DNA from: a virus
DNA: 64,000 nt
Reading direction: 5' to 3' (one strand)
Virus record (IMG/VR): IMGVR_UViG_3300033145_000192
Location: 64,001 to 128,000 of that record
Position numbers and translations under genes: made by a program. Each line of letters starts with the position of its first letter. Positions within the stretch are counted from its first letter, which is position 1. Of this stretch, positions 1-18,805 are shown piece after piece. The notes under the pieces were generated by a model. That model was given only the letters and a program-made list of their open reading frames with translations. It had not been told where the DNA came from and ran no database searches.

Positions 1-864
1 AGACCTGTCCCCAATTCCCCACTTGTATTTGTCCCAACTGCAAGTTTCATTGTCTCCAGTGAGCCTGCGCTTATAGTCGTGTCCATACACGTCGGGAAAT
101 CCATTCTTCATAAAATCAACCGCTAACACCTCTGCTGCGTCTCTACATGCGGCAAATCTATTCCTCATTTCAACAGTGGAGAAATTCGTATGTGCTCCAG
201 CGCCATTCCAGTTTCCACCAACGGGCTTGGAGTCTAGCTTAATCGTTACGCCATGATTCTCGGCAATACGATAAAGAAGATAACGAGCCAGCCACAGATG
301 GTCAGATACTATCAGTGGGCTCTCTGGTCCAATCTGGAACTCCCACTGTCCTGGCATTACCTCGGCATTAACGCCAGCTATCATAAGGCTGGCCTTAACG
401 CACGCCGCTAGATGTTCTTCTACAATCTTGCGTCCAAATGCTTCATCTGCCCCAACTCCACAATAGAATGGACCCTGTTGAGCGGGATATCCGCCTTCTG
501 GCCAACCCAATGGAGTGCGGCCACAAAACATAGTATACTCTTGCTCTATGCCAAACAGTGGTTCAAGTCTACTAAAGGAATGATATGTTTTCACCATGCT
601 ATGTCTATAGTTGGTGGCAGACGGAGTCCCAAAATAGTTACATACCTCGCATAGCGCCAATAAGTGTGGCCGACCGCGTAACGGGTCACCAATCACATAG
701 ACTGGTTTTAGAATACAGTCTGATATTGTGCCTTCGGCTTGACCGGTGCTAGAGCCATCGAACGTCCACTCTGGAACATCGTCACTGGTAATAACTCTGG
801 TCTTTGCTCTTAGCTTTGGAACTGGTTTAGTCCCATCAATCCAGATATATTCGACAAATTTCAT
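1..864 (-). CDS. glnII: Glutamine synthetase type II, partial (runs off left edge; not in the ORF track)
   Basis: Manual translation from ATG at 864 (ATGA overlap with upstream stop): MKFVEYIWIDG..LRAKTRV..PEWTFDGSSTGQAEG..SDCILKPV..FGIEQEY..QGPFYCGVGAD..GVNAEVMPGQWEFQIGP..NWNGAGAHTNFST..RRLTG..ET..WGIGDRS. These are diagnostic GSII motifs; 288 open codons to position 1. Confidence 0.93.
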   Translation of the reverse strand, partial: MKFVEYIWIDGTKPVPKLRAKTRVITSDDVPEWTFDGSSTGQAEGTISDCILKPVYVIGDPLRGRPHLLALCEVCNYFGTPSATNYRHSMVKTYHSFSRLEPLFGIEQEYTMFCGRTPLGWPEGGYPAQQGPFYCGVGADEAFGRKIVEEHLAACVKASLMIAGVNAEVMPGQWEFQIGPESPLIVSDHLWLARYLLYRIAENHGVTIKLDSKPVGGNWNGAGAHTNFSTVEMRNRFAACRDAAEVLAVDFMKNGFPDVYGHDYKRRLTGDNETCSWDKYKWGIGDRS

Positions 865-1520
865 ATGATTGCCTTATCTGGAACCTTTCTTTTTTGCTTA
901 GAGGCAACTATAGGCTTGTCGAAAAAGTCCTTTGCGGCCTGCGGGGTCTTTGTAACGATAGCAAAGATTCTATCATCACCCTTCTTCTGAATCCGGTCCC
1001 TGGCCCAGCCCCAGCAATCCTCAATCATAGCGCCCCTTCTGCCGTGTAGCTCTGGACTACAAAGAATGACCTTGCCATCCTTCGGCACCTGATTTAGCAA
1101 CCCGCCGTATGCTGATGGATTCCAACTGCGCAATGGGTCTAGCCAAAACTTCTTACTTCTAGCTCCACCATGACCTCTTACGGATTCATATTCACTTAAT
1201 CTGTCCCAGACGGGCAGCTTCGCTTGGTGGGCATAGTATGCGGATGGATGTGGCACGTCGAACAGGCCAATGAGCTTCGTCCCAAATGCCTTGACAATCT
1301 TCTTAAGCCACTCAACGTCTAGGTTTTGCTTGATATCGACAAAGAACCTTTCGTAGCCAGAATGGTCGAAAATCATGCCTAGTTCGCCTGGCCTTGATTC
1401 GTTTGGCTCGTGAAACGCCCTAATCTTGCCATCGTGACTAATCTGAACATCTATTTCAGCCCCGTATACGCCAATGTTAACGGGCTTCCACTTGTTGACT
1501 CTATGAGCAATTATCTTCAT
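861..1520 (-). CDS. Glycerophosphodiester phosphodiesterase-like (PLC-like TIM barrel) protein
   Basis: MKIIAHR..GAEIDVQISHDGKIRAFHEP matches the GDPD N-terminal AHR / E-x-D / H motifs; likely start at ATG 1520. Confidence 0.6.
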   Translation of the reverse strand: MKIIAHRVNKWKPVNIGVYGAEIDVQISHDGKIRAFHEPNESRPGELGMIFDHSGYERFFVDIKQNLDVEWLKKIVKAFGTKLIGLFDVPHPSAYYAHQAKLPVWDRLSEYESVRGHGGARSKKFWLDPLRSWNPSAYGGLLNQVPKDGKVILCSPELHGRRGAMIEDCWGWARDRIQKKGDDRIFAIVTKTPQAAKDFFDKPIVASKQKRKVPDKAII

Positions 1521-2586
1521 GTCTTTCCTTTTCCTCCAGCATACTCGCCACAATCTCATCGACTGATTCTTCGAGTGTGATTTCTGTTTCGAACCCTAGC
1601 ATATCCCTAGCCTTATTGACTAGTGGGACTCTCTTCTGAACATCGCACTCAAATGGCTTGTCGGAGACATATCTGAAAGGCAACTCTCCGTTGATTCTGG
1701 TCCAAACCATCTTCGCTAACTCCAACACCGATGTCTGTCGCGGACTAGAAAGGTTGAAGTCTTCATTCTGGAGTGGATTCTCCATAGCAAGTCGGATGCC
1801 TCTTGCGATATCCTTGCCATGAGTATAGCAACGAATTTGACTACCGTCTCCTAGAATATGAAGTGGATTCTGGCCAGAAAGGACTTTGTTCACAAGGTCT
1901 GGGAGCACATGGCTCATGCGCAACTTCACGTTGCCACTATAGATTTCCTCTTCTCCAACTGCCTCATCCTCACCAAGCCCAACGCAATTGAATGGCCTTA
2001 CGATTGTGAACGGCAAGCCATACTGCTGCCATGCACCCTTACAGAAATACTCTGATGCGAGCTTCTGGAATCCATATGTGCTATTTGGTGGGCCAAATAC
2101 CTTCTCTGCTCCTTCTGGAGTCGGCCACGGAGGCCAGAACTCAGAAGCCTCAAACAGATGCTTCCACGCCTCATCGGCTCCTTCAAATACCATTGAGGAG
2201 CTAATGACCACGACCTTCTTTATCTTCATCCATTTGTCTTTCCACAACTCAATGGAGGCGTCAAACGTATTTGATAGAATCCGCTCGTTCGTAGATAGTA
2301 GGTCATAGGCATACTTGTGAAAATAGCTAATGCCACCAATCATGGCGGCACATGCAATCACATAGTCTGGATTATGAGTTGAGAAATCAGGAGTCTCTTT
2401 GGACAAGTCCAATTCTACTAGGCGAAAGTTCTCATGGGAGTCATGCTCGCGCTTTACGCGGCCATACTTTGAGAAGTTGTCATAGCCAATGACGCGATAA
2501 CCACGGGCTAGAAGGTCTCGGCACAGGTAGCCGCCGATAAATCCTTGTGACCCAGTAAGTGCAACGGTCTTCATTCTGTTTGTCAT
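1501..2586 (-). CDS. NAD-dependent epimerase/dehydratase (extended SDR), UDP-glucuronate decarboxylase (UXS/ArnA-C)-like
   Basis: TGSQGFIG Rossmann motif, SSSMVF, YGFQK (YxxxK), IVRPFNCVG, GDGSQIRCYTH and DVQKRVP resemble ArnA/UXS decarboxylases. Confidence 0.8.
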   Translation of the reverse strand: MTNRMKTVALTGSQGFIGGYLCRDLLARGYRVIGYDNFSKYGRVKREHDSHENFRLVELDLSKETPDFSTHNPDYVIACAAMIGGISYFHKYAYDLLSTNERILSNTFDASIELWKDKWMKIKKVVVISSSMVFEGADEAWKHLFEASEFWPPWPTPEGAEKVFGPPNSTYGFQKLASEYFCKGAWQQYGLPFTIVRPFNCVGLGEDEAVGEEEIYSGNVKLRMSHVLPDLVNKVLSGQNPLHILGDGSQIRCYTHGKDIARGIRLAMENPLQNEDFNLSSPRQTSVLELAKMVWTRINGELPFRYVSDKPFECDVQKRVPLVNKARDMLGFETEITLEESVDEIVASMLEEKERHEDNCS

Positions 2587-3215
2587 TTTTTATCTCGTAT
2601 TGGCAAATCGGGTTGGCCTGTTTCCATGTAGGAACTGGCTCTAGGCGCGATTCGCTTATAGTTATGATTCATGATTGGGACTGCGTGAAAACACGCTCTA
2701 CAGAAGTCGTCCTTTTTCTCAAAGTCAATGACCTTCTTTATGTTGCCAAACTTGGCATTACTTAACATTCTTCTGAGACCTGCTTGATTTGGGGCCCACC
2801 AACAAGATTCTTCATCAAGAAATGTCATGATTGGACGGTTACCACTCAGATAGAGCTTTGTCTCCAACACAAGAAGTCCCTTCGTTATCCTTCTTAGTCT
2901 AGATAGGAGCGACATAGGATTCTCTACATGATAGAGGACGCCATTACATGAAACAACGTCATATTCCATTATTCGTAGGAATGATTCCGAAAAGATATCA
3001 AGTTGAACAAAGTCAAAGCCAAACTTGGCAATATTCCTTTTCAGACCTTCACATACACACATGTCAATCCCAATGGCGTGTTTTGCACCTCGCCTAAGAG
3101 CCTCTACGCACAGTGAACCATCCCAACAGCCAACCTCACAGAAGGTCTTTCCCTCCATGTCGATAGGCATATTGAATAGCTTCCATTTTTTGCTCAATCC
3201 CGAAACTGTTGTCAT
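2583..3215 (-). CDS. Class I SAM-dependent methyltransferase (CmoB/DUF1698-like)
   Basis: TFCEVGCWDG motif I, AIGID, YDVVSCNGVLYHVENP, GLLVLET. Confidence 0.8.
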   Translation of the reverse strand: MTTVSGLSKKWKLFNMPIDMEGKTFCEVGCWDGSLCVEALRRGAKHAIGIDMCVCEGLKRNIAKFGFDFVQLDIFSESFLRIMEYDVVSCNGVLYHVENPMSLLSRLRRITKGLLVLETKLYLSGNRPIMTFLDEESCWWAPNQAGLRRMLSNAKFGNIKKVIDFEKKDDFCRACFHAVPIMNHNYKRIAPRASSYMETGQPDLPIRDKK

Positions 3216-4018
3216 TTCAGTCTCATGTGCTCAAAAACAGTGGTGCGATAGAGGTCGTTGTCCTTGACTATAGTGCGGAAGATTTGTGCGTCAATGCCTA
3301 ACCCCTCTGCCAGTCTGGCGAAAGCCGCTGTGTCCTTCGGGAGACACACGCCGCCGAAGCCACGGAAATTCTCGTTGCAATCCAGGTAGAGATTTGTCAT
3401 TGTTGGTCGCGCCACAGCCGCGCTTTTAATTTTCGAATAGTCAGCCCCAAGTTTCTGGCATACCTCATAGAAGCCATTGGCAAATATGACCCTCATGGCA
3501 TTGAACACGTTCGAGAAGTATTTGGTCAGTTCTGCCTCTGTTGGAGACATCTTTACGAACTTCTGAGGATAGTGTCCGTGTGCCTCTTTGACCAAATCAA
3601 ACATGTGACTTGCAAACGGCCCGCTAACGCCAATAACACAGACATCATGGTGTTCAGTGAAGTCGCTAATGGCGTGTCGTTCACGCAAGAACTCTGGAAC
3701 AAAACAAATCATCGTTGGAGCGTATGTGTCAACTAGCATCTCTGTAAAGCCAGGAACAGTCGTTGATTTCACAACGATTACGCCCTTATAGTAGATTGCC
3801 ACCAGGTCTTCAATCACCCTTTCGACAATCGACGTATCACATGACCCATCTGCTGACTCCGGGGTCGGAACACAGATAAAGCACACCTCTGTATCTAGAA
3901 CGTCAAGAAGCTGTGTTTCCAGCACAATATCATGGACTCGAACCTCGTGGCCCAATTTCTCCATTCCATATTTCACAGCGCCACCAACCATACCAACGCC
4001 TACAATGCCTACCTTCAT
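3212..4018 (-). CDS. ugd: UDP-glucose/GDP-mannose 6-dehydrogenase family protein (short form)
   Basis: VGIVGVGMVG, FICVPTP, VVKSTTVPG, PEFLRE, EAELTKYFSN, catalytic GFGGVCLPKD. At 268 aa it lacks the usual C-terminal domain. Confidence 0.85.
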   Translation of the reverse strand: MKVGIVGVGMVGGAVKYGMEKLGHEVRVHDIVLETQLLDVLDTEVCFICVPTPESADGSCDTSIVERVIEDLVAIYYKGVIVVKSTTVPGFTEMLVDTYAPTMICFVPEFLRERHAISDFTEHHDVCVIGVSGPFASHMFDLVKEAHGHYPQKFVKMSPTEAELTKYFSNVFNAMRVIFANGFYEVCQKLGADYSKIKSAAVARPTMTNLYLDCNENFRGFGGVCLPKDTAAFARLAEGLGIDAQIFRTIVKDNDLYRTTVFEHMRLK

Positions 4019-4470
4019 TTGTCACCCCTATATAGTTTTCCAGTTAGCTTAGGTCCAAGCTGAACCTCTCTGCCTGTTAGTTTGGACTTTACTCTGTAAC
4101 GACAAGTCCATAGGTCCGTTCTCATATGGTCACTGTGTCCACACTTACAGCACATTACCTGCCACCAGCATGGATGCGATGTCATCACTTCGCCATCTTC
4201 TACTAAGTGATAGCAATGTTCACATTCCGGCTCAGGCTTCGCTTCTACTAGGAGAAGTTCTGGCGACCAAGCGTTGTATTTCGAGGCTAATTCCATTATC
4301 GCAGTAGAATTTTCACAGCCACCAAACCTGCCACAAGTGCTACAAGACCAGCAGGCGTAACATCCGGCCTTTGAATAGACCTTTTTTGGCTCTTCGCAAC
4401 AACATGGAAGGCTAACTTTGCCTGACTCTACGGACCTCATAATTACCTCGATGTCAAAATCATGGCACAA
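4015..4470 (-). CDS. Cys-rich hypothetical protein (several CxxC motifs)
   Basis: CSTCG, CEHC and CCKCG motifs; translationally coupled to its neighbours. Confidence 0.5.
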   Translation of the reverse strand: MCHDFDIEVIMRSVESGKVSLPCCCEEPKKVYSKAGCYACWSCSTCGRFGGCENSTAIMELASKYNAWSPELLLVEAKPEPECEHCYHLVEDGEVMTSHPCWWQVMCCKCGHSDHMRTDLWTCRYRVKSKLTGREVQLGPKLTGKLYRGDK

Positions 4471-5132
4471 TTTCGTTTCATGCCTTTTCCTAGACCTATA
4501 TCTAATTCTTCACTCAATGATACTATTCTCTCTGGACCGACATCGGTATACAGGAGAATATCATGTGTCTTGCCTATTGCCTTCTCAAACAAAAACTTCT
4601 GTTCGCCAGTGCCTTTTCGGTCACTGTATGGAGACTTCATGTCATGGATGAACACTGGTTTTCTAACTTTGCATAGAAAATTGTTCCAGTAGTATTCAGC
4701 CATGTTCCACGAATGTTGGCAGTCAATAACTATCAAGTCAGACGCCTTGCATGCAGATAGAATTCTGTTTTGGAACTTCTTGTTCATTATGTTGCATACG
4801 GTGAACGGGATTTTGTCAAGTCCACCGGACAAGGCACCTTGCTCACTTAGCTCTAGCGAAAACGCACGCACACTGATTCCCATTAGTCGCATCAGTATTG
4901 TGCTTATGCCTACGCCAAACTCTGTTACAGTCTTGGCCCCAATATGTCGTATGTAGCAAGACAAGATATGAAGGTCAAGAGGACACATCGCATCGCCAAT
5001 GAAGAAACCAGGAGTATATGGAATTACGTTACCAATATCAATTAAATTGGCCAAATTCTCATCATGTGGAATCTTGCAACAGCCTGGAACACTAAATGCA
5101 AGCCCCTCCTTTTGTCTTTGGTTAGGCGTCAT
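4443..5132 (-). CDS. Class I SAM-dependent methyltransferase-like (Methyltransf_24-type)
   Basis: TVTEFGVGIST, DLIVIDCQHSW and VFIHD motifs. Confidence 0.55.
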   Translation of the reverse strand: MTPNQRQKEGLAFSVPGCCKIPHDENLANLIDIGNVIPYTPGFFIGDAMCPLDLHILSCYIRHIGAKTVTEFGVGISTILMRLMGISVRAFSLELSEQGALSGGLDKIPFTVCNIMNKKFQNRILSACKASDLIVIDCQHSWNMAEYYWNNFLCKVRKPVFIHDMKSPYSDRKGTGEQKFLFEKAIGKTHDILLYTDVGPERIVSLSEELDIGLGKGMKRNCAMILTSR

Positions 5133-5137
5133 GCTAT

Positions 5138-5725
5138 TTAGCTCCTTAGTGGATTGTTCTTTGCATGCTGAACGATATCTGGGTCAATAACTGCCTCCAG
5201 TGCTTCAACAGTCCCGCCACCAAGGAATTCACACAAGCCACCAAGAACCCCTGCATCCTTCTCTATGACCTTCTGGAATGGCAGTGAGTAAGCCTTGCAT
5301 CTAGTGGATTTCAAGTATCTCTGTGTCTCGTTTTGTATCCTGTTGAACGTCCCACAAATGGCAGGAATTGCCTGCGGCTTCCATCCAGTATACAGCTTAT
5401 TGCCACTAGCAATGCCCTCCTCTGGGTCTCTACTAGTCACAATGACGTGGACATCAAATCCTAGCTTCTGCAAAACAGGTATCCACTGCGCATACAGGTG
5501 AATCAGCTTAACGGCGTCTGCACCCTGCTCCTCTAGCTTTAGAATGGCTGGAGGAATGGCGTGTCTTTGAGCATTACTGAGCGGATTCTCGTTGTAGCCG
5601 CTTCGAAGTCCAAACTCCTGCATCGGATTGCACTCTCCGAAGCTGTAGCCACACGTTTTTACCAACTCGCAAGCTAGCGAAGTCCCACTTCTGCCTGGCC
5701 CGCACACAACAACAAACTTCTTCAT
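5138..5725 (-). CDS. Sulfotransferase family protein
   Basis: VVVCGPGRSGTSL 5'-phosphosulfate-binding loop, NPLS, and VIVTSRDP 3'-phosphate motif; start at 5725 (or 5737). Confidence 0.7.
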   Translation of the reverse strand: MKKFVVVCGPGRSGTSLACELVKTCGYSFGECNPMQEFGLRSGYNENPLSNAQRHAIPPAILKLEEQGADAVKLIHLYAQWIPVLQKLGFDVHVIVTSRDPEEGIASGNKLYTGWKPQAIPAICGTFNRIQNETQRYLKSTRCKAYSLPFQKVIEKDAGVLGGLCEFLGGGTVEALEAVIDPDIVQHAKNNPLRS

Positions 5726-5733
5726 GTCTTCCC

Positions 5734-6468
5734 TCATAGCTTTGTAAAGTATCCATGGCACTGATAGCCGCAATACAATTGACTGATACCCTCTGGCTTG
5801 TCAGCAAAGAACTCATCACAAGCCTTCTTCACTCCAGGCAGCGCATTGAGCACGTTGAGGTTCCTGTAGTTCTTCTTCCTCAACGAACCTAGTGAATCAA
5901 AAACCGGCTTAACGATGACTGGGTCGCAATAGTCATCTACTATGCAAATCCCGCCACTTGAGAGCCTCGGATATACCAACTCAAGCGATTCCATGATTGA
6001 GGTATAGAAGTCACCATCAAGATGGGCGAAAACGATTTCAGATGGAATGTCGCTGTCGGTAATCTCGTTAAACCACATTCTGTGAATAATCGGGTGCCTG
6101 AGCTTGAATTCGTCAAATAGCTCAAATATGTGGGCCTCATCGAACCCCTCTCCAGCTATGAGATGCTTTGGGGCATTCGGATTCGCGGACATTTGTCCTG
6201 CTCGGAATGGCGTATGGCCGTCTTCCGGACGCTTGCCAGGTAGGCCCTCAAACGAGTCGTATAGATGGACTTCTCTGTCGATTTCAAGAACATCAAGCAC
6301 CTTCTGCATGATTCTCGCAGTTTTGCCCCTATGACATCCAAGCTCAACGATATGCCCAGGAATGTTCAGCAACATGACCCTCATCAACAGATGATAGATG
6401 TTCATGGCCTGTTCCATGTTCACCATACCGGATGTCTTGACCATATCTACAATGAAGTTGTTATCCAT
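5734..6468 (-). CDS. tylF: TylF/MycF/NovP-family sugar O-methyltransferase
   Basis: VELGCHRG, HLYDSFEGLP, FAHLDGDFYTS, GGICIVDDY. Confidence 0.88.
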   Translation of the reverse strand: MDNNFIVDMVKTSGMVNMEQAMNIYHLLMRVMLLNIPGHIVELGCHRGKTARIMQKVLDVLEIDREVHLYDSFEGLPGKRPEDGHTPFRAGQMSANPNAPKHLIAGEGFDEAHIFELFDEFKLRHPIIHRMWFNEITDSDIPSEIVFAHLDGDFYTSIMESLELVYPRLSSGGICIVDDYCDPVIVKPVFDSLGSLRKKNYRNLNVLNALPGVKKACDEFFADKPEGISQLYCGYQCHGYFTKL

Positions 6469-7037
6469 TAGTATACCTTGTATCCCTTAATGCTTCCCTG
6501 CTTTGTATCCTCATCACCACCATACAGACATTCAAACCCAAATAATTCCATCTCTCCACATCTTGTGGATTTGGATAGATGCGTTTTATCCTTGTCATAT
6601 CCACTGCCCCAAGGCAAATGAATGATGCATAGTTTCTTTGCAACTATGTCGATGCGCCTGAATGTATCAGCCCATTCGTCTTTGTAGATGTGCTCTGGAC
6701 CGGCAGACCAAAACACAAGGTCAAAGCTATCCTCATCAAACACCTCATCAATCAGCCTTACGTCTCCAGCCACAACGTCTCGTATGTATGGGTTATTCAC
6801 CTTTTTTTCTATGTATTCATCGAATAGCTCTAGTGTGACGAAATCAAGGTCACCAGGAAAAACTTCATCAAGAAAGCGCAACCACCTGATTGAATCAACA
6901 CCTCCATGTATGCCCAAGCCCACATTCAGAATAGACTTGATACCCATATCCTTGACTGCCTCGCGAATTTCGTTCCACCCATAGCCAAGCATGACTTTCT
7001 TCCACTTGTCGAAATCTACCTCTTTTCTCTCAATCAT
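6468..7037 (-). CDS. Class I SAM-dependent methyltransferase-like (paralogue of 10486..11166)
   Basis: SILNVGLG, GDVRLID, FDLVFWSAGPEH, IHLPWG. Confidence 0.65.
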   Translation of the reverse strand: MIERKEVDFDKWKKVMLGYGWNEIREAVKDMGIKSILNVGLGIHGGVDSIRWLRFLDEVFPGDLDFVTLELFDEYIEKKVNNPYIRDVVAGDVRLIDEVFDEDSFDLVFWSAGPEHIYKDEWADTFRRIDIVAKKLCIIHLPWGSGYDKDKTHLSKSTRCGEMELFGFECLYGGDEDTKQGSIKGYKVY

Positions 7038-7728
7038 TATATGCTCCGAAGTATTGCTCGTTCAGACTCAAAATGTCCGATGGTATTGATTTTATTCTTT
7101 CTCTCACTTCTGGAGCCTTATACCTATCCAAAATCTTCATCTTGGACGGATTGGTCCTGAAGTCCAGTTTGTCGAAGCTACTTCCTCCTCCACTCCCCAT
7201 GATGTATTCACGCCCCGCATCTGTAAATGGAACTGAGGCACCAAGCATCGCGCACACCTCTTCGAATATAGTGCGACGATAATCTAAGTCTATATGCCAT
7301 TTCGGAAAGTTCACAGTCACACTTTGGTCACCAAACGTCTTATGTCCAAGTGCGTGAAGAATATAGTCCTTCCATACTGCAAATAGCTTGGAGTGTCCGA
7401 TATTCCCATGTTTGAGAATACTAGCAAAGTGATTTTTGATATCGCGAACCACGATTACACGAGGAAGATTAGGACATGTGGGGGTATCAATCCTGCCCTC
7501 AAGGCCAACTCCTAGGAGATTGATAGGGTCGGCAAGCGGCCTTTTAACGTGTTGCTCTCCGTTCGCATACCACACTTTGAGATGGGCGCTAGGGCCGTAG
7601 TTATTCAAAAACAGTCCGAGCCCTGGGAATTGGCAGAATAACCAGTGAGATACTCCGTGCTGGCCGCACCTGGGATAGCCTAGCACAGCAAGTGATTTCT
7701 TGTGCTCCAGCCCTGCTATCTTGCTCAT
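7030..7728 (-). CDS. Sulfotransferase-like protein
   Basis: VLGYPRCGQHGVSHWL (RSGxHA-type PSB loop variant), VIVVRD..NHFAS, GGGSSFD. Confidence 0.55.
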   Translation of the reverse strand: MSKIAGLEHKKSLAVLGYPRCGQHGVSHWLFCQFPGLGLFLNNYGPSAHLKVWYANGEQHVKRPLADPINLLGVGLEGRIDTPTCPNLPRVIVVRDIKNHFASILKHGNIGHSKLFAVWKDYILHALGHKTFGDQSVTVNFPKWHIDLDYRRTIFEEVCAMLGASVPFTDAGREYIMGSGGGSSFDKLDFRTNPSKMKILDRYKAPEVRERIKSIPSDILSLNEQYFGAYND

Positions 7729-8465
7729 TCTGCCGCCCTCTGCTCAAGGAACTCAAGCACCTTGTTGACGCTAAATTCGATTGACTCGTGCTCTGTGTTG
7801 ATTATCAAATCGGGGCTAGCTGGCTCCTCATAAGGTGCGCTTGGGTGAAATCCCGTAAGGTCCTTAATCTCGCCATCCATTGCTTTTTTATACAGACCCT
7901 TTGGGTCTCGCTTGGCGCACACACCAACCGGGCACTTGACGTAAACCTCGATGTAGTTGTCGCACAACTTTCGCGCATAGTCTCTTTGGCACTTGAATGG
8001 GGAGATGAACGAGGCCAGCACGATATGGTCGATTGCCAGGTAGCTCGCCACATGCACCGCTCGCTTGTTGTTCTCGTCCCTGTCGTCCTTAGAGAATCCA
8101 AGGTGCTTACTAAATGTAGCCCGCGCAACATCTCCGTCAAGGCGCTTGACCTGCAACATCTTTGCCTGTAATTTCGCCGCTATGGCATCTGCTAGAGTCG
8201 TCTTGCCCGACCCACTCAGACCTGTAAACCACACCACAACTCCGTCAGTAGTAACGCATTCACGACCAAAATTCACGCTATTCCACGCCCTTTCATGGAG
8301 ATAATACAACAAGGACTTTACCACCACATCCACTCCTATGAGTGCCGTAGCAATACCCCATGAGCCAGTAATGGCCCCACCGATGATAAAGAGTGCTAAC
8401 GTGGCCCAGAGTCGCCATGAGATTGTTTTGACTATTGACCTTTTGGAAGTTTCAACCATTTCCAC
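7725..8465 (-). CDS. cysC: Adenylyl-sulfate (APS) kinase with N-terminal DUF2061-like membrane domain
   Basis: VVWFTGLSGSGKTT, LDGDVAR, LGFSKDDRDEN, SFISPF, RDPKGLYKKA..GEIK..TG, PYEEP. The N-terminal KRSIVKTISWR..LYYLHERAW is DUF2061-like with two hydrophobic helices. Confidence 0.92.
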   Translation of the reverse strand: MEMVETSKRSIVKTISWRLWATLALFIIGGAITGSWGIATALIGVDVVVKSLLYYLHERAWNSVNFGRECVTTDGVVVWFTGLSGSGKTTLADAIAAKLQAKMLQVKRLDGDVARATFSKHLGFSKDDRDENNKRAVHVASYLAIDHIVLASFISPFKCQRDYARKLCDNYIEVYVKCPVGVCAKRDPKGLYKKAMDGEIKDLTGFHPSAPYEEPASPDLIINTEHESIEFSVNKVLEFLEQRAAE

Positions 8466-9079
8466 TCCTCACATTCCATGCTATATACTTCGTCAATGTG
8501 CTTTATATCCTCTTCACTCAACTCTTTCATATATGCCTTAGTTTCGTAGTAGTGCTTCTTGCGCTCGAACATACCGTTAGAAGTGCGGCCTTTGTAGTGC
8601 TTTGCAATGTCAATGCATATGCCGCCGGAAGTGAGGGGAACTCCATACATTTCAACTATACTTCGAAGAATTTCGCGTGGGTGACCCATCATATCATCGT
8701 GCTGGATGTTAACCCAGTTTGGAACTATCGACTCGATGGTTCTAAACGTCTCTAATACATGATTGCGCATAGCTATCATGTCGCTAAAGTCGAAACCTTC
8801 TACACCCCAAGGCTCACGCATGGCCCGCGTTACGGAAAGCCCGCTCCTGATTACTCCATGCGTTTGACCAGTCATAGAGCAAATCCAAGCCCATATGTTC
8901 TTATGAATGTGTAGGAATAGCGTATCGCTCCAGTCTCTTTCTCTAAGAAACCTCAGATTCACACCATGCTTACTCCCGTGCTTACTCCCAACCTCTATAT
9001 CGAAGTTGGCAGCACATAGTCGTTGAAGTATGTTTGTCCCACTACATTGTAGTCCAAATACCTGGATATACTTAATCAT
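8432..9079 (-). CDS. Sulfotransferase-like protein
   Basis: IQVFGLQCSGTN (variant of GxxRSGTN), GSKHG, HIHKNIWAWICSM; likely start ATG 9079. Confidence 0.55.
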   Translation of the reverse strand: MIKYIQVFGLQCSGTNILQRLCAANFDIEVGSKHGSKHGVNLRFLRERDWSDTLFLHIHKNIWAWICSMTGQTHGVIRSGLSVTRAMREPWGVEGFDFSDMIAMRNHVLETFRTIESIVPNWVNIQHDDMMGHPREILRSIVEMYGVPLTSGGICIDIAKHYKGRTSNGMFERKKHYYETKAYMKELSEEDIKHIDEVYSMECEEWKWLKLPKGQ

Positions 9080-9722
9080 CGCCTTCCGATTCTTCCCGCT
9101 CACCAACCATCTTCTTTGCAAAATCGTAAAGCTTCATATCCCACTCATTGTAGCCAAGCACCAATTCTACGTCCTTCTTAGGAAGGTTTTTCACTTTATG
9201 ATTCTTTGTTTTGTTGTCATGTCCTAATCCACCTAGGCCATAGTCAGCCCTAAGTCGTCTAGCAAGCTTCCCTAGATTATCTGTGAACCCCACATACTTA
9301 ACAAGCTCAAGATTCCTAACTGCATCGTCATAGTGACATTCATGAATGGGCCCATGGTAGAGTAATCCAAGACCACACAGTTGCCGAACAGCCAAATTCT
9401 GCACATTCCAAGCACAAAGCTGCTCCATAAACTCAGCAAGCGGAGGCTTCTTCTTTGGAGCCTTTCTGTAATTATATGCAAACTTACTAAATACTCTTTC
9501 CGCTGGATGACGCAATATGGTTACATACTCACAACTGTCTGGATTATACTGATGAATGCCATATGGAATATGTCCAAGTAGTGCTTTTCTTTTCCGTTTA
9601 CGAGCCATCTCCATTCGTTCTTTCAAGTCGCTTTGATGCGAAACAATCATCGGATTAAGCACACTCATCATGCCTCTTAGTGAAATTCCGCCAGTTTTCG
9701 CTATGTGGATGAAGATAAGCAT
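9072..9722 (-). CDS. Sulfotransferase family 2 protein (carbohydrate sulfotransferase-like)
   Basis: FIHIAKTGGISL, LLGHIPYG, VTILRHPAERVFS are the classic HIPKTGG and R-x-P-x-x-R-x-x-S motifs. Confidence 0.8.
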   Translation of the reverse strand: MLIFIHIAKTGGISLRGMMSVLNPMIVSHQSDLKERMEMARKRKRKALLGHIPYGIHQYNPDSCEYVTILRHPAERVFSKFAYNYRKAPKKKPPLAEFMEQLCAWNVQNLAVRQLCGLGLLYHGPIHECHYDDAVRNLELVKYVGFTDNLGKLARRLRADYGLGGLGHDNKTKNHKVKNLPKKDVELVLGYNEWDMKLYDFAKKMVGEREESEGDD

Positions 9723-10492
9723 TACCTATCTTCTCTCTCCCCACGAACGAAGTGATACGTAATACAGTCACCAACGAGATAGTTTGGAATTCCAGCATGC
9801 TGATATTTGTCATGAATGATGACATCGCCAGTTATCCCACCAACGATTGTGGGCATTGGACCGAACTTCTTCCAGTATTTCCTGTCCTGCAACCAGCTAC
9901 ATCCATCAGTCCTAGGAGGTCCGTTAATCATCCTAGTAGGTTTCTTCCAGTGCTCTAGGCACTCTAGAATGGTATATGGTCCAGGCTTCACTATCTCCTC
10001 ACAAAACTTAACGAACTCGTCTTCCTTGTAGGTGTCATATGTGAGCCCAAAATCGCGGCAAAAATGTCTGGAGCCAGGGTGACTAAGCATGGACTCTACG
10101 GTCTGCGCCTGTAGGATTGCATCTCCTTGGAGGTCGTTGTAGCAATCGAGTATGGTAGCGAACGAACCTGGGAACCAAGTCTGGTCACTTCCACCACGGA
10201 AAACTAGTGGATGCTCGCCAAGTGTGTAGCCCAAGTTCCAACAGTCATAGAGGCGTTTGATGAAAGGCTTGCTCGGGTCCTCGTAGTGTAGATGATACTT
10301 GATGTCATGCTGCTCACAAATAGCAACAAGCTCGTCTGTTACTGCTTGGGGAATCTTCGCATTGTAGTAGATGATGACGTTAAACGTCCACACGTCTCGT
10401 GTAAGTCCAGCGTTGCGTAGGACATTGTCTACATGTCCCCTAAAGAGTCCAGGGTCTCTACCAATAATCGTATAGTAATCCATCGTTAACAT
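9722..10492 (-). CDS. Putative GT-A fold (GT2-like) glycosyltransferase
   Basis: VFRGGSDQTWFPG (DxD-like position), GDVIIHDK..AG and TYHFVRG C-terminal motif; start ATG 10492. Assignment is tentative. Confidence 0.45.
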   Translation of the reverse strand: MLTMDYYTIIGRDPGLFRGHVDNVLRNAGLTRDVWTFNVIIYYNAKIPQAVTDELVAICEQHDIKYHLHYEDPSKPFIKRLYDCWNLGYTLGEHPLVFRGGSDQTWFPGSFATILDCYNDLQGDAILQAQTVESMLSHPGSRHFCRDFGLTYDTYKEDEFVKFCEEIVKPGPYTILECLEHWKKPTRMINGPPRTDGCSWLQDRKYWKKFGPMPTIVGGITGDVIIHDKYQHAGIPNYLVGDCITYHFVRGEREDR

Positions 10493-11166
10493 ACTAATCC
10501 CCGCTTCCAGCCATACATACATGACTGCTTCGTGTCCCTTATTCCAGTATATCTTACCTTAAACCCAAACTGTTCCATTTCATCCCTCATAACGGACCCA
10601 GAAAGGTGCTGGTCTCCCAGTGGGAATTTCTTGTTTTGGTTATTGTCGTATGCCTTACCCCACGGAAGATGGATAACAATAATCTTGCCGAGCTTATCTA
10701 ACTTGGCGAAAGTATCCGCCCACTCATCCCTATTGATATGCTCGGGTCCATGGGACCATAGAATAAGGTCAAATGGTCCTATGTCCAACTCGTCAATCTT
10801 GCGAACATCTCCAAGATGACACTTGTCGATGTATTCTCGGTTTGCTCCCTTGACGGCCCTCATCTTTTTAATTCGGCTCGCAACCAACTCTAGGTTTTCA
10901 AATCTATTTATGTCGAAAAGCCAGTTGTATACCTTGAGCCACTTGATGGTTTCCCCATGCTCTCCCAGTCCCACATTCAGCAACGAATTGATTTCTGGAA
11001 CCGCTGTAGCAATCTCCTTATACATTTCAGCAAACCCCACCCCTTTGCCTATGCCTCTTTTTGGATTAGACTTTGGTGGAAACTTCTTGTGTGCGTTATC
11101 CCAACATTTCGCGAATATCTGAGAGCGCATAAGGATTTTCTTTACTTCTGCCGGGTCTAACAACAT
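10486..11166 (-). CDS. Class I SAM-dependent methyltransferase-like (paralogue of 6468..7037)
   Basis: SLLNVGLG, GDVRKID, FDLILWSHGPEH, IHLPWG; start 11166 after a GGAG RBS, overlapping the wecB 3' end. Confidence 0.65.
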   Translation of the reverse strand: MLLDPAEVKKILMRSQIFAKCWDNAHKKFPPKSNPKRGIGKGVGFAEMYKEIATAVPEINSLLNVGLGEHGETIKWLKVYNWLFDINRFENLELVASRIKKMRAVKGANREYIDKCHLGDVRKIDELDIGPFDLILWSHGPEHINRDEWADTFAKLDKLGKIIVIHLPWGKAYDNNQNKKFPLGDQHLSGSVMRDEMEQFGFKVRYTGIRDTKQSCMYGWKRGLVC

Positions 11167-12316
11167 TGAAATGCTCCAGTATGAATGGGTCAAGTATAGG
11201 AATGGAGCTTCCAAGCTCTACCCTGTTGAAATATCTTCTCTTGCCATCAAGCCTCTTTACAAGGTTCTCGACAATGCGCTCCGAACTCTTACCATCTCCT
11301 AGAGTAAAATCTTCATTGAGCGTGCCAGTCAATGCTAGCTCCGTAGCTTCTTCAATCGCACTACTGTATGGGCTACTCATAAACGTGATGCCAGACTTAA
11401 ATGTCTCTGGCCTTTCTGTTGCTTCTCTCGTTACAACACATGGAGTCCCAAGTAGCGCCGAAACCTCCTGGTTGGTTCCGCTGTCAGTATACTCAATCAT
11501 CGCATTGGCCTCAAGGCGAATGAAATCGAAAAATCCCAATGGAGGCATTGTGTGGAAGTGTTGCGGATACTTGATTCCTAGCTTCTTCAGTCTCGGCATC
11601 TCAATGAGTATTACCGGAATTCCAAGTTTCTTGGTTGTCTCTCCTACAGTTCGGATAATTCCCTCTGCCATTCCCTTTATCTCTACGTGCTCATTCCTAT
11701 GCAACGTCATCAACGCATACTCGCCAGGTTTGCATGGAAGTGGCGCAATTCCCTTGTGCATCCAATCCAATTTATCTCGGTGTTCATTCACCACATCGAC
11801 AATTACATTTCCAACAACCTCAATCCTAGTTGGCTCAACGCCTTCTCTTACTAGGTTAATCTTGTAGTCATGCTGATACACATACAGGATATCACTTACT
11901 CTATCAATCAAAACTCTGTTGCGCTCCTCTGGCATCTTCCAGTTAAAAGAACGCATACCTGCTTCGATGTGTGCGATAGGAATACCCATCTTTAGCGGAG
12001 CTACGCATCCAATAGTGGCGTTCGCATCTCCTAGGAACAAACAAACGTCTGGTTGAAGCTTCTCAAGCTCTTGCCCCAATTGCATAATCAATTGGCTATG
12101 CTGCCCAAAATGACTATCGGCCCTAGTTTGCAACTGAATGTCTGGGCGTGGCACGCCTAACTCATCAAAGAAGATGTCACTCAGATTATGGTCATAGTGC
12201 TGACCTGTATGTAGGAATGTAGCCTCTACGTTTGGATGCTCCTTAAGCAACCTCAAAACAATTGATGTCCTAATGAAATCTGGGCGGATGCCCAGAACTA
12301 CTGCAACCTTGTGCAT
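11096..12316 (-). CDS. wecB: UDP-N-acetylglucosamine 2-epimerase (non-hydrolysing), WecB/FnlC family
   Basis: VLGIRPDFI, HTGQHYD, LGDAN, AHIEAGMRSFNWKMPEERNR, LHRNE, TDSG..QE, RE.TERPE, GDGKSSERI. Confidence 0.92.
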   Translation of the reverse strand: MHKVAVVLGIRPDFIRTSIVLRLLKEHPNVEATFLHTGQHYDHNLSDIFFDELGVPRPDIQLQTRADSHFGQHSQLIMQLGQELEKLQPDVCLFLGDANATIGCVAPLKMGIPIAHIEAGMRSFNWKMPEERNRVLIDRVSDILYVYQHDYKINLVREGVEPTRIEVVGNVIVDVVNEHRDKLDWMHKGIAPLPCKPGEYALMTLHRNEHVEIKGMAEGIIRTVGETTKKLGIPVILIEMPRLKKLGIKYPQHFHTMPPLGFFDFIRLEANAMIEYTDSGTNQEVSALLGTPCVVTREATERPETFKSGITFMSSPYSSAIEEATELALTGTLNEDFTLGDGKSSERIVENLVKRLDGKRRYFNRVELGSSIPILDPFILEHFNVVRPGRSKENPYALSDIREMLG

Positions 12317-12323
12317 TTAACCC

Positions 12324-13172
12324 TCAAATTCGGCGCATATCCCGTTCGTATTCCGCCATCTCTTCTATCATTCCTGCGAAGTCTTGCGGAATAACCAAAT
12401 CATTCAATCCTCTCTCCGTCCTTAGAGAGCGGTTGATACCAATGTCTGTTTCGTGCGGATTTACCTTAATTTCGAACCCGAACTGCCTAATGATTTCTGA
12501 TACCAACTCAAACTTGGTAACATCAGAAGAGAATACGTGAAATAGGCTAGGCTCATACAAGTCTTCAAATATGATGTCATAAATGATGCGCCCCAACTCA
12601 AGTGTCGTCACTCCGTTCCAAACGTGGTTCGTGAACCCGTTTATCTCTTTTCCATCTTGGCTTCTCAGCCACTCCAATAGGCTCCGACTTCTGCCGCCAA
12701 ACTCCGGACCAATGATGCTTGTCCGCAACACCATGCAGTCATCTGGTTCACCCAAACTCTTGGACTTGCCATACGAATCTAATGCATTGTGCTTGTCGGT
12801 TTCCTTGTATTCACCCCTCCAGCCGTCATAGACGCAATCTGTCGTAATGTGAACAATTCTCGTATTTGTTAGTGTTCCCCACGTTGATAGTTGACGCGGG
12901 AAGATAGCATTTGTATAGATAGCATTCGCCACATCCGTAGGATTCGCAAACATTGGCTTAATCGCACCAATGCAGTTGATGACATAATCAACTCTGAACC
13001 CTAGTAGCGTCGAAAGCTTAGTTCCTATCTGATTGAGTGTCCTTGGCTCAATAACCAACGCCTCTCTTCCGTAGGCATTGATATCCATGTAAGTCCCCAC
13101 GGACTTTGACTTGAGCGTATGTTCTACCATATGCCCAAGCATTCCAGTTCGACCCAATATCGCTATCTTCAT
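12324..13172 (-). CDS. rmlD: RmlD-like NDP-4-keto-6-deoxysugar reductase
   Basis: ILGRTGMLG, VINCIG, HITTDCVYDG, YGKSKSLGE, RTSIIGPE. Confidence 0.85.
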   Translation of the reverse strand: MKIAILGRTGMLGHMVEHTLKSKSVGTYMDINAYGREALVIEPRTLNQIGTKLSTLLGFRVDYVINCIGAIKPMFANPTDVANAIYTNAIFPRQLSTWGTLTNTRIVHITTDCVYDGWRGEYKETDKHNALDSYGKSKSLGEPDDCMVLRTSIIGPEFGGRSRSLLEWLRSQDGKEINGFTNHVWNGVTTLELGRIIYDIIFEDLYEPSLFHVFSSDVTKFELVSEIIRQFGFEIKVNPHETDIGINRSLRTERGLNDLVIPQDFAGMIEEMAEYERDMRRI

Positions 13173-13618
13173 CTGTTTTCCACACCAAAGATGATGTTGA
13201 TGTCTTCGTCTGAGACTTTCATTCTGTGGTCGTCCTTCTTCACTTCTTCGAAGCTAAGAGTAGAATAAACGAGCATTCTGGTATCTTCCTCAAGCGTTAC
13301 GGTTCCGTTATACCAACCTGGTGGAATCCAAATAATGCCTGGCTTCCTATCGCTTAGTGTCGCTACTGTAACCTCGGCTGGATTGTCCATCCTTCTGGCT
13401 GCAATCTTGGCTGTCCCCTTAATCACATGGATACCAGTCCAGCCCTTTTTGTGTCCGTGCCATGCACGAATCAGTCCAGAATTCCAATTCTGGATTACGT
13501 AAGTTCTGCTGATATCAAACTGTATCTCGTGGTTTCCGATGTTGTCTACTGGACAGTAAACACTACCTCTATCATCAACATACAATGGAAAGTATACGAC
13601 TTCTGGCTGCCTATCCAC
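13169..13618 (-). CDS. RmlC/FdtA-like cupin sugar epimerase
   Basis: DDRGSV, IRAWHGHK, IWIPPGWYNG cupin motifs. Confidence 0.8.
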   Translation of the reverse strand: MDRQPEVVYFPLYVDDRGSVYCPVDNIGNHEIQFDISRTYVIQNWNSGLIRAWHGHKKGWTGIHVIKGTAKIAARRMDNPAEVTVATLSDRKPGIIWIPPGWYNGTVTLEEDTRMLVYSTLSFEEVKKDDHRMKVSDEDINIIFGVENR

Positions 13619-14573
13619 TCATCACCTCTCCTACATATTGTGCGTTGTGGAATCTCTTGTCCCACACGTCAGCTATTCTGCCCTCATTCATGACCTTAAT
13701 CATTTCAGAGACTCCAGTATGCACTGATATGCCTGCGATAAATCCACTATTCTTCGCCTTGGCATTGTCAACTCTATAGTTTCTCAAGTCCTCAAACTTC
13801 ATATCAGTTCTGGTAATGTCACCCTTACCGGCACACAGAATGATACGTTCTGCTAGGTCAATGATTCTCATGTTCGACCTTGAAAGCACCCATGTTCCAT
13901 TGTCGGGCAACACTGCTGCTTGCGCGAATATCTGGCCAGCATCACGGACATGAAGGAGCGGCCTCCATTGCTCTCCACCGAATACAGTCAACGGCTTACC
14001 TTGCATTACCCTATATGTAAGGATGTTCGCCACAAGGTCGCACCTAATCCTGGCATGCTCGGTGCTCAGACCAAATAGAGTGCCCAGGCGGAAAATCGCG
14101 TGAGATGGAACCTTGCTTACTGCGGCCTCAGCATTTAGCTTTGTCCCTGCATACAAACTAAGAGGATTGGTGGCACTCTCTTCGTCTAAGAGGTCATTGT
14201 TAGCTCCGTAGACGCTGCACGTTGAGGCAAATATCATTCGCACACCGAACTTGGTGCAGAGGTGAGCAATCCTATTGGTTGCCAATTCATTTACATCGAC
14301 CGTGAATGCCTGATTTACCTGACATGCGCCATCGCCAACGATTCCAGCCAAGTGAACTAGTGAGTCGTAATTCTCACTTTTCATACAAAGACGCATGAAG
14401 GTATAGTCAGTGATATCGCCACGAATGAATTTAACACCACGACGCATATACATTCCGCCATACATGAGGTTGTCCAAGACTGTGACCTCGTGACCATCAT
14501 TGACTAGATGTTCAGCAACACAATCTCCAATATATCCCGCCCCACCCGTTATGAGTATCTTAGCCATCTCCAC
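13611..14573 (-). CDS. NAD-dependent epimerase/dehydratase (extended SDR)
   Basis: ILITGGAGYIG, HLAGIVGD, FASTCSVYG, YAGTK, FRLGTLFG, WRPLLHVRD. Confidence 0.88.
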   Translation of the reverse strand: MEMAKILITGGAGYIGDCVAEHLVNDGHEVTVLDNLMYGGMYMRRGVKFIRGDITDYTFMRLCMKSENYDSLVHLAGIVGDGACQVNQAFTVDVNELATNRIAHLCTKFGVRMIFASTCSVYGANNDLLDEESATNPLSLYAGTKLNAEAAVSKVPSHAIFRLGTLFGLSTEHARIRCDLVANILTYRVMQGKPLTVFGGEQWRPLLHVRDAGQIFAQAAVLPDNGTWVLSRSNMRIIDLAERIILCAGKGDITRTDMKFEDLRNYRVDNAKAKNSGFIAGISVHTGVSEMIKVMNEGRIADVWDKRFHNAQYVGEVMSG

Positions 14574-14766
14574 CCGCCTTTATGTGTCGTAGAAAGTAAA
14601 GCGTCTTCCTTGTTGGATAACAGTTCGAAAGTGCCTTCTTGTCAAGGGGTAAACTTATTACACAAACAGGTCCACCACAATAGCAGACCTGTTCGCTTAA
14701 AGGCATTATCTCTTTACAATCAGCACACTCTCTAGCCCAAAAGGTGCTTTCTGAAGAACCATGCAC
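14560..14766 (-). CDS. Small Cys-containing hypothetical protein
   Basis: 68 aa with CADC..CYC; fills the gap between coupled genes. Confidence 0.4.
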   Translation of the reverse strand: MHGSSESTFWARECADCKEIMPLSEQVCYCGGPVCVISLPLDKKALSNCYPTRKTLYFLRHIKAGGDG

Positions 14767-15604
14767 AAATCAAAACTCCTAGTATCTCAAAAACCATAAG
14801 TGGATAGTATGGATTGATGTTAATTGGCTCACTTTGCTCTTCATAGATAAAGGCGAGTCCTCTTTCATCCAAACATGCTTTAATGTCTGCTGCTGGCACA
14901 TACTCGCACCAGTTGGCCAAAGGAACGTCATTTCTGGTTCTCATGTGGAGCATCATCATTCCATTCTCCGTTGGAACCATTAGTCTGATGTTGCCGTGCA
15001 TCTGTCCAAGTCCAAGCCTCGTAACGATTCCAGCGAGTTCTTGGTCCTGACTCCAGATTCCACCTCCACTATTACCTCTCCATACGGCTAGTCCTGCCCT
15101 GGCTAGTCCACCAACATCTGAAGATGCTCGACCTTCTGAAATGTTTGGGTCCGACCCACTAGTGCATCCGATGGCAAATACTCTTTCACCAAACTCAACG
15201 TCTGTTAGATGAATGTCGCTCTCTGGTGGATTTGGAACTTCTAGGACTGCAATGTCGTTGCCAGCATACGTTCCACAAAATACAACGGAAGCGGACTGAA
15301 TGTCTGCCACAGAGCCAAAGAACTCTACATCAAGATTCTTCTCCTCTGGGTCTAGTCGCTCGTTCATGTTGATATCGACACAATGCGCTGCTGTTAGGAT
15401 GTATCCTGTATTAAGTGTTACGCCTGTCCCATAAATCGTTCCTTGTGGGTGTGTCATTGTAACGCGGCACGTTGAGTGATACGCGCCCCACACAGAATCC
15501 TTCACAGCAATGTTTGAGGGCTGTGGCCAGAAGATGACCATTGCGGCAATGAGCCATCCTACTAGAACGGTAAAGGCAGTAAGCAAAAGTGTCTTTCTCA
15601 TCAT
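14732..15604 (-). CDS. Trypsin-like (S1) serine protease with N- and C-terminal transmembrane segments
   Basis: Triad motifs ILTAAHC, NDIAVL and GNSGGG; hydrophobic N-terminus (LLLTAFTVLVGWLIAAMVIFW) and C-terminus (LMVFEILGVLICAWFF then RKH). Confidence 0.8.
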   Translation of the reverse strand: MMRKTLLLTAFTVLVGWLIAAMVIFWPQPSNIAVKDSVWGAYHSTCRVTMTHPQGTIYGTGVTLNTGYILTAAHCVDINMNERLDPEEKNLDVEFFGSVADIQSASVVFCGTYAGNDIAVLEVPNPPESDIHLTDVEFGERVFAIGCTSGSDPNISEGRASSDVGGLARAGLAVWRGNSGGGIWSQDQELAGIVTRLGLGQMHGNIRLMVPTENGMMMLHMRTRNDVPLANWCEYVPAADIKACLDERGLAFIYEEQSEPININPYYPLMVFEILGVLICAWFFRKHLLG

Positions 15605-15605
15605 T

Positions 15606-18056: not shown

Positions 18057-18072
18057 GATAACCCCGTGTGAG

Positions 18073-18804: not shown

Positions 18805-18805
18805 A

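Follow-up and report, generated by a model that had tools for sequence, protein, structure and literature searches.

An adenosine 5'-phosphosulfate kinase gene is packed among four sulfotransferase-like genes

We analyzed a 64,000-nucleotide (nt) stretch of virus DNA (the window; bases 64001-128000 of the 177,375-bp IMG/VR record IMGVR_UViG_3300033145_000192), and focused on a putative sulfation block of seven minus-strand genes at positions 5138-9722. The block encodes an adenosine 5'-phosphosulfate (APS) kinase (CysC) fused to a DUF2061 domain, four predicted sulfotransferases (here ST-A to ST-D), and two interleaved methyltransferases. In order of transcription, the genes are ST-D, ST-C, DUF2061::APS kinase, ST-B, a methyltransferase-like gene, a TylF-like O-methyltransferase gene, and ST-A (Table 1). 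Neighboring genes share 1-34 nt or lie 5-8 nt apart; the kinase open reading frame (ORF) overlaps both of its neighbors, ST-C on the upstream side and, by 4 nt, ST-B on the downstream side. Given this tight packing, the seven genes very probably form a single translational unit. A consensus scan of positions 1-20000 returned no more promoter-like (37 versus 32 ± 6) or terminator-like (12 versus 14 ± 4) elements than shuffled sequences did, and was uninformative on operon structure.

A preliminary description of the window had proposed a self-contained module made of a membrane-anchored APS kinase and four divergent sulfotransferases. We located all five genes and the four loop motifs on the minus strand, as described. 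The gene set was incomplete, however, since the two methyltransferase genes had been overlooked. The methyltransferase-like protein had no Pfam match; its neighbors in the ESM Atlas were viral Methyltransf_11 clusters (score 0.95), which we treat as a lead only, and homologues were present in three of the related viral contigs described below (L074, L075, and L078).

The APS kinase looks intact and is fused to DUF2061

The fusion protein matched PF01583 (APS_kinase) with 175.9 bits (cut-off 21.1; E = 7.4e-52), TIGR00455 with 199.1 bits (cut-off 138.7), and the solved APS kinase 8a8h with E = 2e-41. Aligned to a solved APS kinase, it carried the P-loop GLSGSGKTT and the motifs RLDGDV, FISPF, and RDPKGLYKKA. 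Judged by these matches, the APS kinase assignment is secure and the kinase looks intact. Residues 11-62 matched PF09834 (DUF2061) with 57.8 bits against a cut-off of 23.1, so the earlier reading of this gene as a cysC fused to a DUF2061-like domain was borne out.

When phage and bacterial copies were aligned, DUF2061 consisted of a pair of helices, hydrophobic or amphipathic in character, with TWR and LYYLHERxW as conserved motifs. A single 19-residue window reached a Kyte-Doolittle hydropathy of 1.63. A role as membrane anchor is unproven: DUF2061 is a predicted membrane domain only, and any membrane location of the kinase would follow from that prediction. The bacterial copies have Asp, Glu, Lys, and HER residues conserved inside or beside the helices. 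Because of these conserved polar motifs, DUF2061 may be more than a passive anchor. We found no literature on its function.

The flanking proteins are assigned to four sulfotransferase families

None of the four sulfotransferases had an NCBIfam match, and neither ST-C nor ST-D had a protein match among 50,697 deposited phage records. ST-D matched PF03567 (Sulfotransfer_2) marginally (22.2 bits, cut-off 22, residues 2-201), and PHROGs gave only a weak match to a Gal-3-O-sulfotransferase. A profile of ST-D and two phage homologues matched the heparan-sulfate 6-O-sulfotransferase (HS6ST) 5T03 with E = 4.6e-10, and both the 5'-phosphosulfate-binding (5'-PSB) motif HIAKTGG and the 3'-phosphate-binding (3'-PB) motif LRHPAERVFS aligned. 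These matches suggest that ST-D is a carbohydrate-type sulfotransferase, that is, a member of a carbohydrate-sulfating family.

ST-C was similarly close to the threshold of PF13469 (Sulfotransfer_3; 27.4-27.8 bits, cut-off 27). We found 151 relatives among 1.84 billion representatives; 14 of the 33 members aligned matched Sulfotransfer_3, and 10 matched Sulfotransfer_1. The family profile matched SULT7A1 (E = 3.5e-5), TPST1, and the sulfotransferase domain of CurM with E values from 3.5e-5 to 2.6e-4, and also the entry 2zq5 (deposited as "putative uncharacterized protein," which we take to be Stf1). An invariant KH of the ST-C family aligned to the TH of SULT, with its His at the position of the catalytic one, and the Ser of the 3'-PB motif (S67) was nearly invariant. 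The 5'-PSB loop of ST-C, GLQCSGTN, has no Lys or Arg, and the same was true of its six closest relatives (clade loops GLQ[CT]SGTN, GLHCSGTN, and GLYGSGTN); remoter relatives carry an Arg (GERCSGTN and GLQRSGTN).

ST-A and ST-B belong to small families (25 and 6 clusters, respectively). Direct PDB searches with single sequences and small profiles gave chance matches only, and because they were uninformative we turned to structure prediction. The AlphaFold model of ST-A (predicted local distance difference test [pLDDT] 86) was closest to the sulfotransferase domains of OLS and CurM and to TPST, with Z scores of 11.8-12.2 over ∼172 residues (best Z 12.2, 172 residues, OLS), followed by nucleoside monophosphate (NMP) kinases and MiaA at Z 10-10.8. 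ST-A has the canonical loop GPGRSGTS and a 3'-PB-like SRxxxExxxS, in which R99 and S107 were invariant in 24 sequences. Its BFVD neighbors were annotated phage and giant-virus sulfotransferases.

The ST-B model had a lower pLDDT of 72; all Foldseek matches listed and all 50 VIA-align rows were nevertheless sulfotransferases (best Z 11.4 over 187 residues, root-mean-square deviation 3.6). An ESM Atlas structure search placed ST-B near Sulfotransfer_3/1 clusters, with template-modeling (TM) scores of 0.61-0.67. Its loop G-x-P-R-[SC]-G-Q-H and a 3'-PB-like RDIKNxxAS were invariant across homologues of 35-74% identity. The loop retains the Arg and ends in QH where TT is usual, and no sequence profile of ST-B reached a sulfotransferase family. 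The profiles of ST-B and ST-C were not detectably related (hhalign probability 0.7%), and an IMG/VR pattern scan for ST-B confirmed no relative.

From family profiles and predicted folds, we assign the flanking proteins to the sulfotransferases, each to a family of its own (for ST-B, a probable assignment based on its predicted fold), in agreement with the preliminary description, since each could be placed among solved sulfotransferases by a fold or profile search. That description had also reported two non-canonical loops for the sulfate donor 3'-phosphoadenosine 5'-phosphosulfate (PAPS). This was true of ST-C, without Lys or Arg, and partly true of ST-B, which ends in Gln-His but has kept its Arg. 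Its alternative, that the variant-loop proteins are P-loop kinases, was not sustained: the Walker-A lysine is replaced by T in ST-A and ST-C and by Q in ST-B, ST-D has a different loop, the top 50 structural matches of ST-B were all sulfotransferases, and the ST-C profile led to SULT, TPST, and CurM.

A fifth sulfotransferase-like gene (211 amino acids [aa], loop GAPRTGTS) lies outside the window, between the terminase and ribonucleotide reductase genes and far from the glycan genes described below. Its product is a paralogue of ST-A (hhalign probability 98.8%).

The kinase and sulfotransferases occur together in related phages

Five viral contigs of 16-169 kb (L074, L075, L077, L078, and L079) matched the region around the kinase gene for gene, and each encoded DUF2061::CysC together with one or two of the same sulfotransferase families: ST-C and ST-A in L074, ST-A in L075 and L078, and ST-D and ST-B in L077 and L079. 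ST-B directly follows and overlaps the kinase gene in this phage, L077, and L079. The recurrence of the kinase beside one or two of these sulfotransferase families in five syntenic contigs shows that the arrangement is not due to chance. These relatives share the whole glycan island with this phage; DUF2061, APS kinase, and sulfotransferases are shared with a further contig, L001, as well. Among the relatives examined, this phage has the largest set of sulfotransferases, four in the block plus the fifth gene.

The DUF2061-kinase fusion was common: PF09834 and PF01583 occurred together in at least 85 of the best 120 clusters, and several of these clusters were on the same long contigs as homologues of ST-A or ST-B. 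An unrelated low-GC viral contig (L002) encoded an APS kinase, a DUF2061 ORF, two ST-like ORFs with PRTGNS and PRSASS loops, and Gmd. Stand-alone DUF2061 ORFs (∼65-150 aa) were also widespread in IMG/VR viral contigs (L003-L073), often 0.3-2 kb from a ∼145-175-aa P-loop ORF with weak similarity to APS kinase (E = 1e-7 to 1e-11).

Among deposited phages, APS kinase was rare (5 of the 50,697 records, one of them a Salmonella contig), and the sulfation block had no DNA-level match. The predicted proteins share their fold with annotated sulfotransferases of Synechococcus phage S-SCSM1, Xanthomonas phage FoX4, and Hokovirus, and with PHROG 3347. The annotated phage and giant-virus genes are mostly single, whereas here four families accompany a donor-making kinase in a glycan operon. 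The preliminary description had fairly called phage sulfation poorly described: many phages have annotated sulfotransferase genes, whose function a 2023 paper considers unclear (PMC10580990). We found no literature linking phage sulfotransferases to an APS kinase.

APS is most likely supplied by the host

The preliminary description had noted that the window lacks an ATP sulfurylase, and we extended the search to the complete 177-kb genome. No match at E ≤ 1 was obtained with PF01747 (Sat) or PF01507 (CysD/PAPS reductase), and PF00459 (CysQ, the 3'-phosphoadenosine 5'-phosphate [PAP] phosphatase) had no match either; positive controls worked in each case. ATP sulfurylase is thus missing from the window and from the rest of the genome alike, and the most likely source of APS is therefore the host, as had been suggested before.

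In all five syntenic relatives, a 136-190-aa HxGH nucleotidyltransferase with sub-threshold similarity to NadM lies at most ∼900 bp upstream of the kinase. It directly adjoins the kinase gene in L077 and L078, and in L001 it lies just after the kinase, so that DUF2061, this mini-nucleotidyltransferase, and APS kinase stand together. The six homologues were related at phmmer E = 1e-28 to 1e-30, and PF01467-PF01583 fusions exist. This genome, unlike the five relatives and L001, has no mini-nucleotidyltransferase (best tblastn E = 0.19), which strengthens the case for host APS. With no Sat, CysD, CysQ, or mini-nucleotidyltransferase, the module cannot be called self-contained.

The only PF01467 gene of the genome encodes an RfaE-II-like or cytidylyltransferase-like HxGH protein, ∼47 kb from the kinase and in a separate gene block. 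It is probably not a hidden sulfurylase, and we did not count it as one: only the HxGH region is common to it and the mini-enzyme, where 78 residues align with 31% identity (pairwise E = 0.002).

DUF2061 accompanies APS kinase in bacterial polysaccharide loci

For cellular counterparts, we took one genome per species and obtained 80 loci (L086-L165; ∼65 from Bacteroidota), picked by similarity to the fusion. The cellular homologues were all ∼35-48% identical to it. A DUF2061 ORF lay directly upstream of cysC in ∼70 of the 80 loci and was fused to it in 6; CysD was present in 71, CysN in 68, and CysQ in 55. In some Proteobacteria, DUF2061 instead comes after a CysN-CysC fusion. DUF2061 is thus a recurrent partner of cysC, mostly in Bacteroidota, in cysQ-DUF2061-cysC-cysDN operons. 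As a check on the bias of similarity-picked loci, we sampled 81 genomes of that class evenly and found DUF2061 in 10. It adjoined or was fused to an APS kinase in four of these and lay within 4 kb of one in another; the two were on different contigs in two genomes and far apart in one, and two genomes had no kinase. The link between DUF2061 and APS kinase in cells is frequent but not obligatory.

In Winogradskyella sp. HB-48 (L105), the locus contains, in this order, RmlD, Gmd, an epimerase, CysQ, a tandem DUF2061, CysC, CysD, CysN, a Sulfotransfer_3 protein, and a Wzx-like flippase. Such Bacteroidota polysaccharide loci resemble the phage block in that DUF2061 is coupled to APS kinase, a sulfotransferase adjoins, and nucleotide-sugar genes are part of the locus. 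They differ in having CysDN, CysQ, and a flippase, and in that DUF2061 is usually a separate ORF, often as a tandem pair. The phage, in contrast, has a fused gene and four to five sulfotransferases, with no sulfurylase, PAP phosphatase, or exporter.

The block lies in a glycan island of a large tailed phage

Direct terminal repeats are present in the IMG/VR record, whose completeness is rated at 100%. It represents a tailed phage: the window encodes a split DnaE-type polymerase, a DnaB helicase, a UvsX-like recombinase, and an exonuclease, and genes for the major head protein, portal, large terminase, and ribonucleotide reductase lie just past it. The minus strand carries almost every plausible gene of the window, and no tRNA was found there. 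The two DnaE-type polymerase ORFs correspond to consecutive parts of one PHROG profile and are separated by ∼1.7 kb with three small ORFs.

The sulfation block is part of a co-directional glycan island (Table 1). The island encodes ∼9 glycosyltransferases of the GT2 and GT4 families and a set of nucleotide-sugar enzymes (UDP-GlcNAc 2-epimerase, RmlB-, RmlC/FdtA-, and RmlD-like proteins, a UDP-sugar dehydrogenase, and a Gmd-like dehydratase), together with extra methyltransferases, a trypsin-like peptidase, and a glutamine-synthetase-like ligase. In a simple hydropathy scan of the island proteins, only DUF2061 and the peptidase had hydrophobic segments, and the Pfam matches of these proteins included no flippase, polymerase, or ABC exporter.

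Several other genes in the island or at its edge were recorded. The trypsin-like serine peptidase has hydrophobic segments at both ends and is found at the same island position in four of the five relatives; the exception is the short contig L077, which lacks it. Immediately upstream of the first glycosyltransferase lies the gene for a 120-aa protein that matches sigma-70 region 2 and, by that match, may supply the island with a phage sigma factor. A cysteine-rich 151-aa protein with many CxxC pairs has no family match and is kept in L074. Directly upstream of ST-D, a 266-aa protein, also with no family match, is strongly conserved in L074, L075, and L078 (E = 1e-131 to 1e-150); it may be a GT-A-like transferase.

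Table 1. Positions of the genes and domains discussed (in the window unless a genome or contig is named)
Feature	Position	Strand	Evidence
ST-D, Sulfotransfer_2/heparan-sulfate 6-O-sulfotransferase-like	9072..9722	-	loop HIAKTGG; PF03567, profile match 5T03
ST-C, divergent Sulfotransfer_3/1-like	8432..9079	-	loop GLQCSGTN; PF13469, family profile
DUF2061::APS kinase (CysC) fusion	7725..8465, likely ATG 8459	-	Pfam, TIGR00455, 8a8h
DUF2061 domain, residues 11-62	8280..8435	-	PF09834, 57.8 bits
APS kinase catalytic domain, residues 75-223	7797..8243	-	PF01583, E 7.4e-52; PDB alignment
ST-B, orphan sulfotransferase-fold protein	7030..7728	-	loop GYPRCGQH; predicted structure
Probable S-adenosylmethionine-dependent methyltransferase, paralogue of 10486-11166	6468..7037	-	Atlas neighbors
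TylF-like sugar O-methyltransferase	5734..6468	-	PF05711, E 2.9e-24
ST-A, small sulfotransferase, 195 aa	5138..5725	-	loop GPGRSGTS; predicted structure
Fifth sulfotransferase-like gene	genome 141981-142616 (L085:13981-14616)		loop GAPRTGTS; hhalign to ST-A
Glycan island, co-directional	1..23794 (plus a few kb beyond the window start)	-	Pfam matches of window proteins
Cysteine-rich protein, 151 aa	4015-4470	-	
266-aa protein	9722-10522	-	
Trypsin-like serine peptidase	14732-15604	-	
120-aa protein	23778-24140	-	sigma-70 region-2 match
DnaE-type polymerase, two ORFs	24722-26308 and 28061-29854	-	one PHROG profile
RfaE-II-like or cytidylyltransferase-like HxGH protein	genome 22611-23240 (L166:1321-1950)	+	PF01467
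Mini-nucleotidyltransferase of relatives	L074:8719-9129, L075:9036-9464, L077:6779-7189, L078:9534-10004, L079:8837-9409, L001:10882-11346		phmmer

Discussion

We think it reasonably probable, on the sequence matches and predicted structures, that the block is the sulfation branch of a phage-encoded, cytoplasmic pathway for an O-methylated glycan. DUF2061::CysC would phosphorylate host-supplied APS to PAPS, and, with PAPS as donor, the four sulfotransferases would each sulfate different positions or residues on an oligo- or polysaccharide built by the glycosyltransferases of the island, to which the interleaved methyltransferases would add O-methyl groups. The acceptor could be either virion proteins or a host envelope glycan.

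Dedicated PAPS supply beside a sulfotransferase is already known from bacteria. The rhizobial NodPQ/NodH, mycobacterial CysDNC/Stf0, and Xanthomonas RaxPQ/RaxST systems place a pathway-specific APS kinase next to a PAPS-consuming sulfotransferase, as the phage does; they differ from it in including a sulfurylase, in having one sulfotransferase, and in not being viral. To our knowledge, none of them contains DUF2061. Virus-encoded cytoplasmic glycosylation is known from chlorovirus capsid glycans, which contain O-methylated sugars, from mimivirus fibrils, and from mycobacteriophage capsids and tails. The phage island is like these in encoding many soluble glycosyltransferases, sugar-nucleotide enzymes, and methyltransferases with no export machinery. 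We know of no report of sulfation of chlorovirus, mimivirus, or mycobacteriophage glycans. Sulfotransferase genes themselves are already known from many phages and giant viruses; what is new is a phage glycan operon with a DUF2061-linked kinase and multiplied sulfotransferases but no sulfurylase, PAP phosphatase, or exporter.

Several points weigh against a sulfated island glycan. The proposal is built on the genes and predicted proteins of an uncultured phage with an uncultured host. ST-A and ST-B have no match in Pfam (E 0.01), NCBIfam, or PHROG, and in the predicted structure of ST-A the sulfotransferase fold beats NMP kinases by only ∼1.4 Z. The island showed no initiating transferase, lipid carrier enzyme, or exporter that would point to the acceptor. 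On the supply side, the genome does hold one HxGH nucleotidyltransferase, judged RfaE-II-like from its sequence. Moreover, the top structural neighbors of the ST-A and ST-B models include protein-tyrosine and polyketide "activating" sulfotransferases (TPST1/2 and the CurM and OLS domains) besides cytosolic SULTs, and not sugar enzymes; ST-A also matches SgdX2, an activating sulfotransferase of 195 aa, at Z 10.3. The enzymes might accordingly act on non-glycan acceptors such as phage or host protein tyrosines or small molecules, or sulfation might be a transient activating step in which sulfate serves as a leaving group, as in CurM, OLS, and SgdX2, and the end product is unsulfated. We consider this unlikely, given that ST-D matches a carbohydrate sulfotransferase, that all five genes lie in a sugar operon beside sugar O-methyltransferases, and that the counterparts in bacteria are loci for polysaccharides; the ranking of fold matches is uninformative on substrate at Z 10-12 and 10-17% identity.

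The loops of ST-B and ST-C raise another doubt. With QH for TT in ST-B and the basic 5'-PSB residue lost in the ST-C clade, either protein could be weak, inactive, or differently specific. One or both might then be no PAPS-dependent catalyst but an inactive scaffold, an acceptor-binding subunit, or an enzyme with another donor; the PR[SC]GQH of ST-B in place of PKxGTT, and the Arg that only remoter relatives of ST-C carry, would fit such a role. Both proteins nevertheless keep the 3'-PB Ser motif, the His of ST-C aligns to the SULT catalytic His, and ST-B keeps its loop Arg, with motifs unchanged across homologues of 35-74% identity, so that we regard a non-PAPS role as quite improbable. A kinase role is unlikely, since neither protein has the Walker-A lysine. 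Sulfur-assimilation genes such as cysH do occur in phages, and the kinase could in principle be an auxiliary metabolic gene that boosts host sulfate assimilation to cysteine, with its sulfotransferase neighbors accidental. We give this very little credence: the genome has no PAPS reductase (CysH), the kinase gene overlaps sulfotransferase genes on both sides, and sulfotransferases accompany the kinase in five of five relatives.

A more far-reaching picture is possible, although we put it forward only tentatively. A clade of large environmental phages might make a multiply sulfated, O-methylated glycan, possibly a virion coat, entirely with its own soluble enzymes. DUF2061 would in addition be an unrecognized functional subunit of APS kinase, not a passive anchor, in PAPS-for-glycan pathways common to Bacteroidota and phages, and this phage would have given up its own candidate sulfurylase to live on host APS.

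Phages from marine and other environments commonly carry sulfotransferase genes, and the locus described here ties such genes to a donor-making kinase and a full glycan pathway. It thereby suggests a concrete role for phage sulfotransferases, namely the making of a phage-directed sulfated glycan. Its four small predicted sulfotransferases, each from a different family and two of them with atypical PAPS loops, are candidates for enzymology. The locus also draws attention to DUF2061, a conserved companion of APS kinase with a role that may be tested in culturable Flavobacteriaceae.

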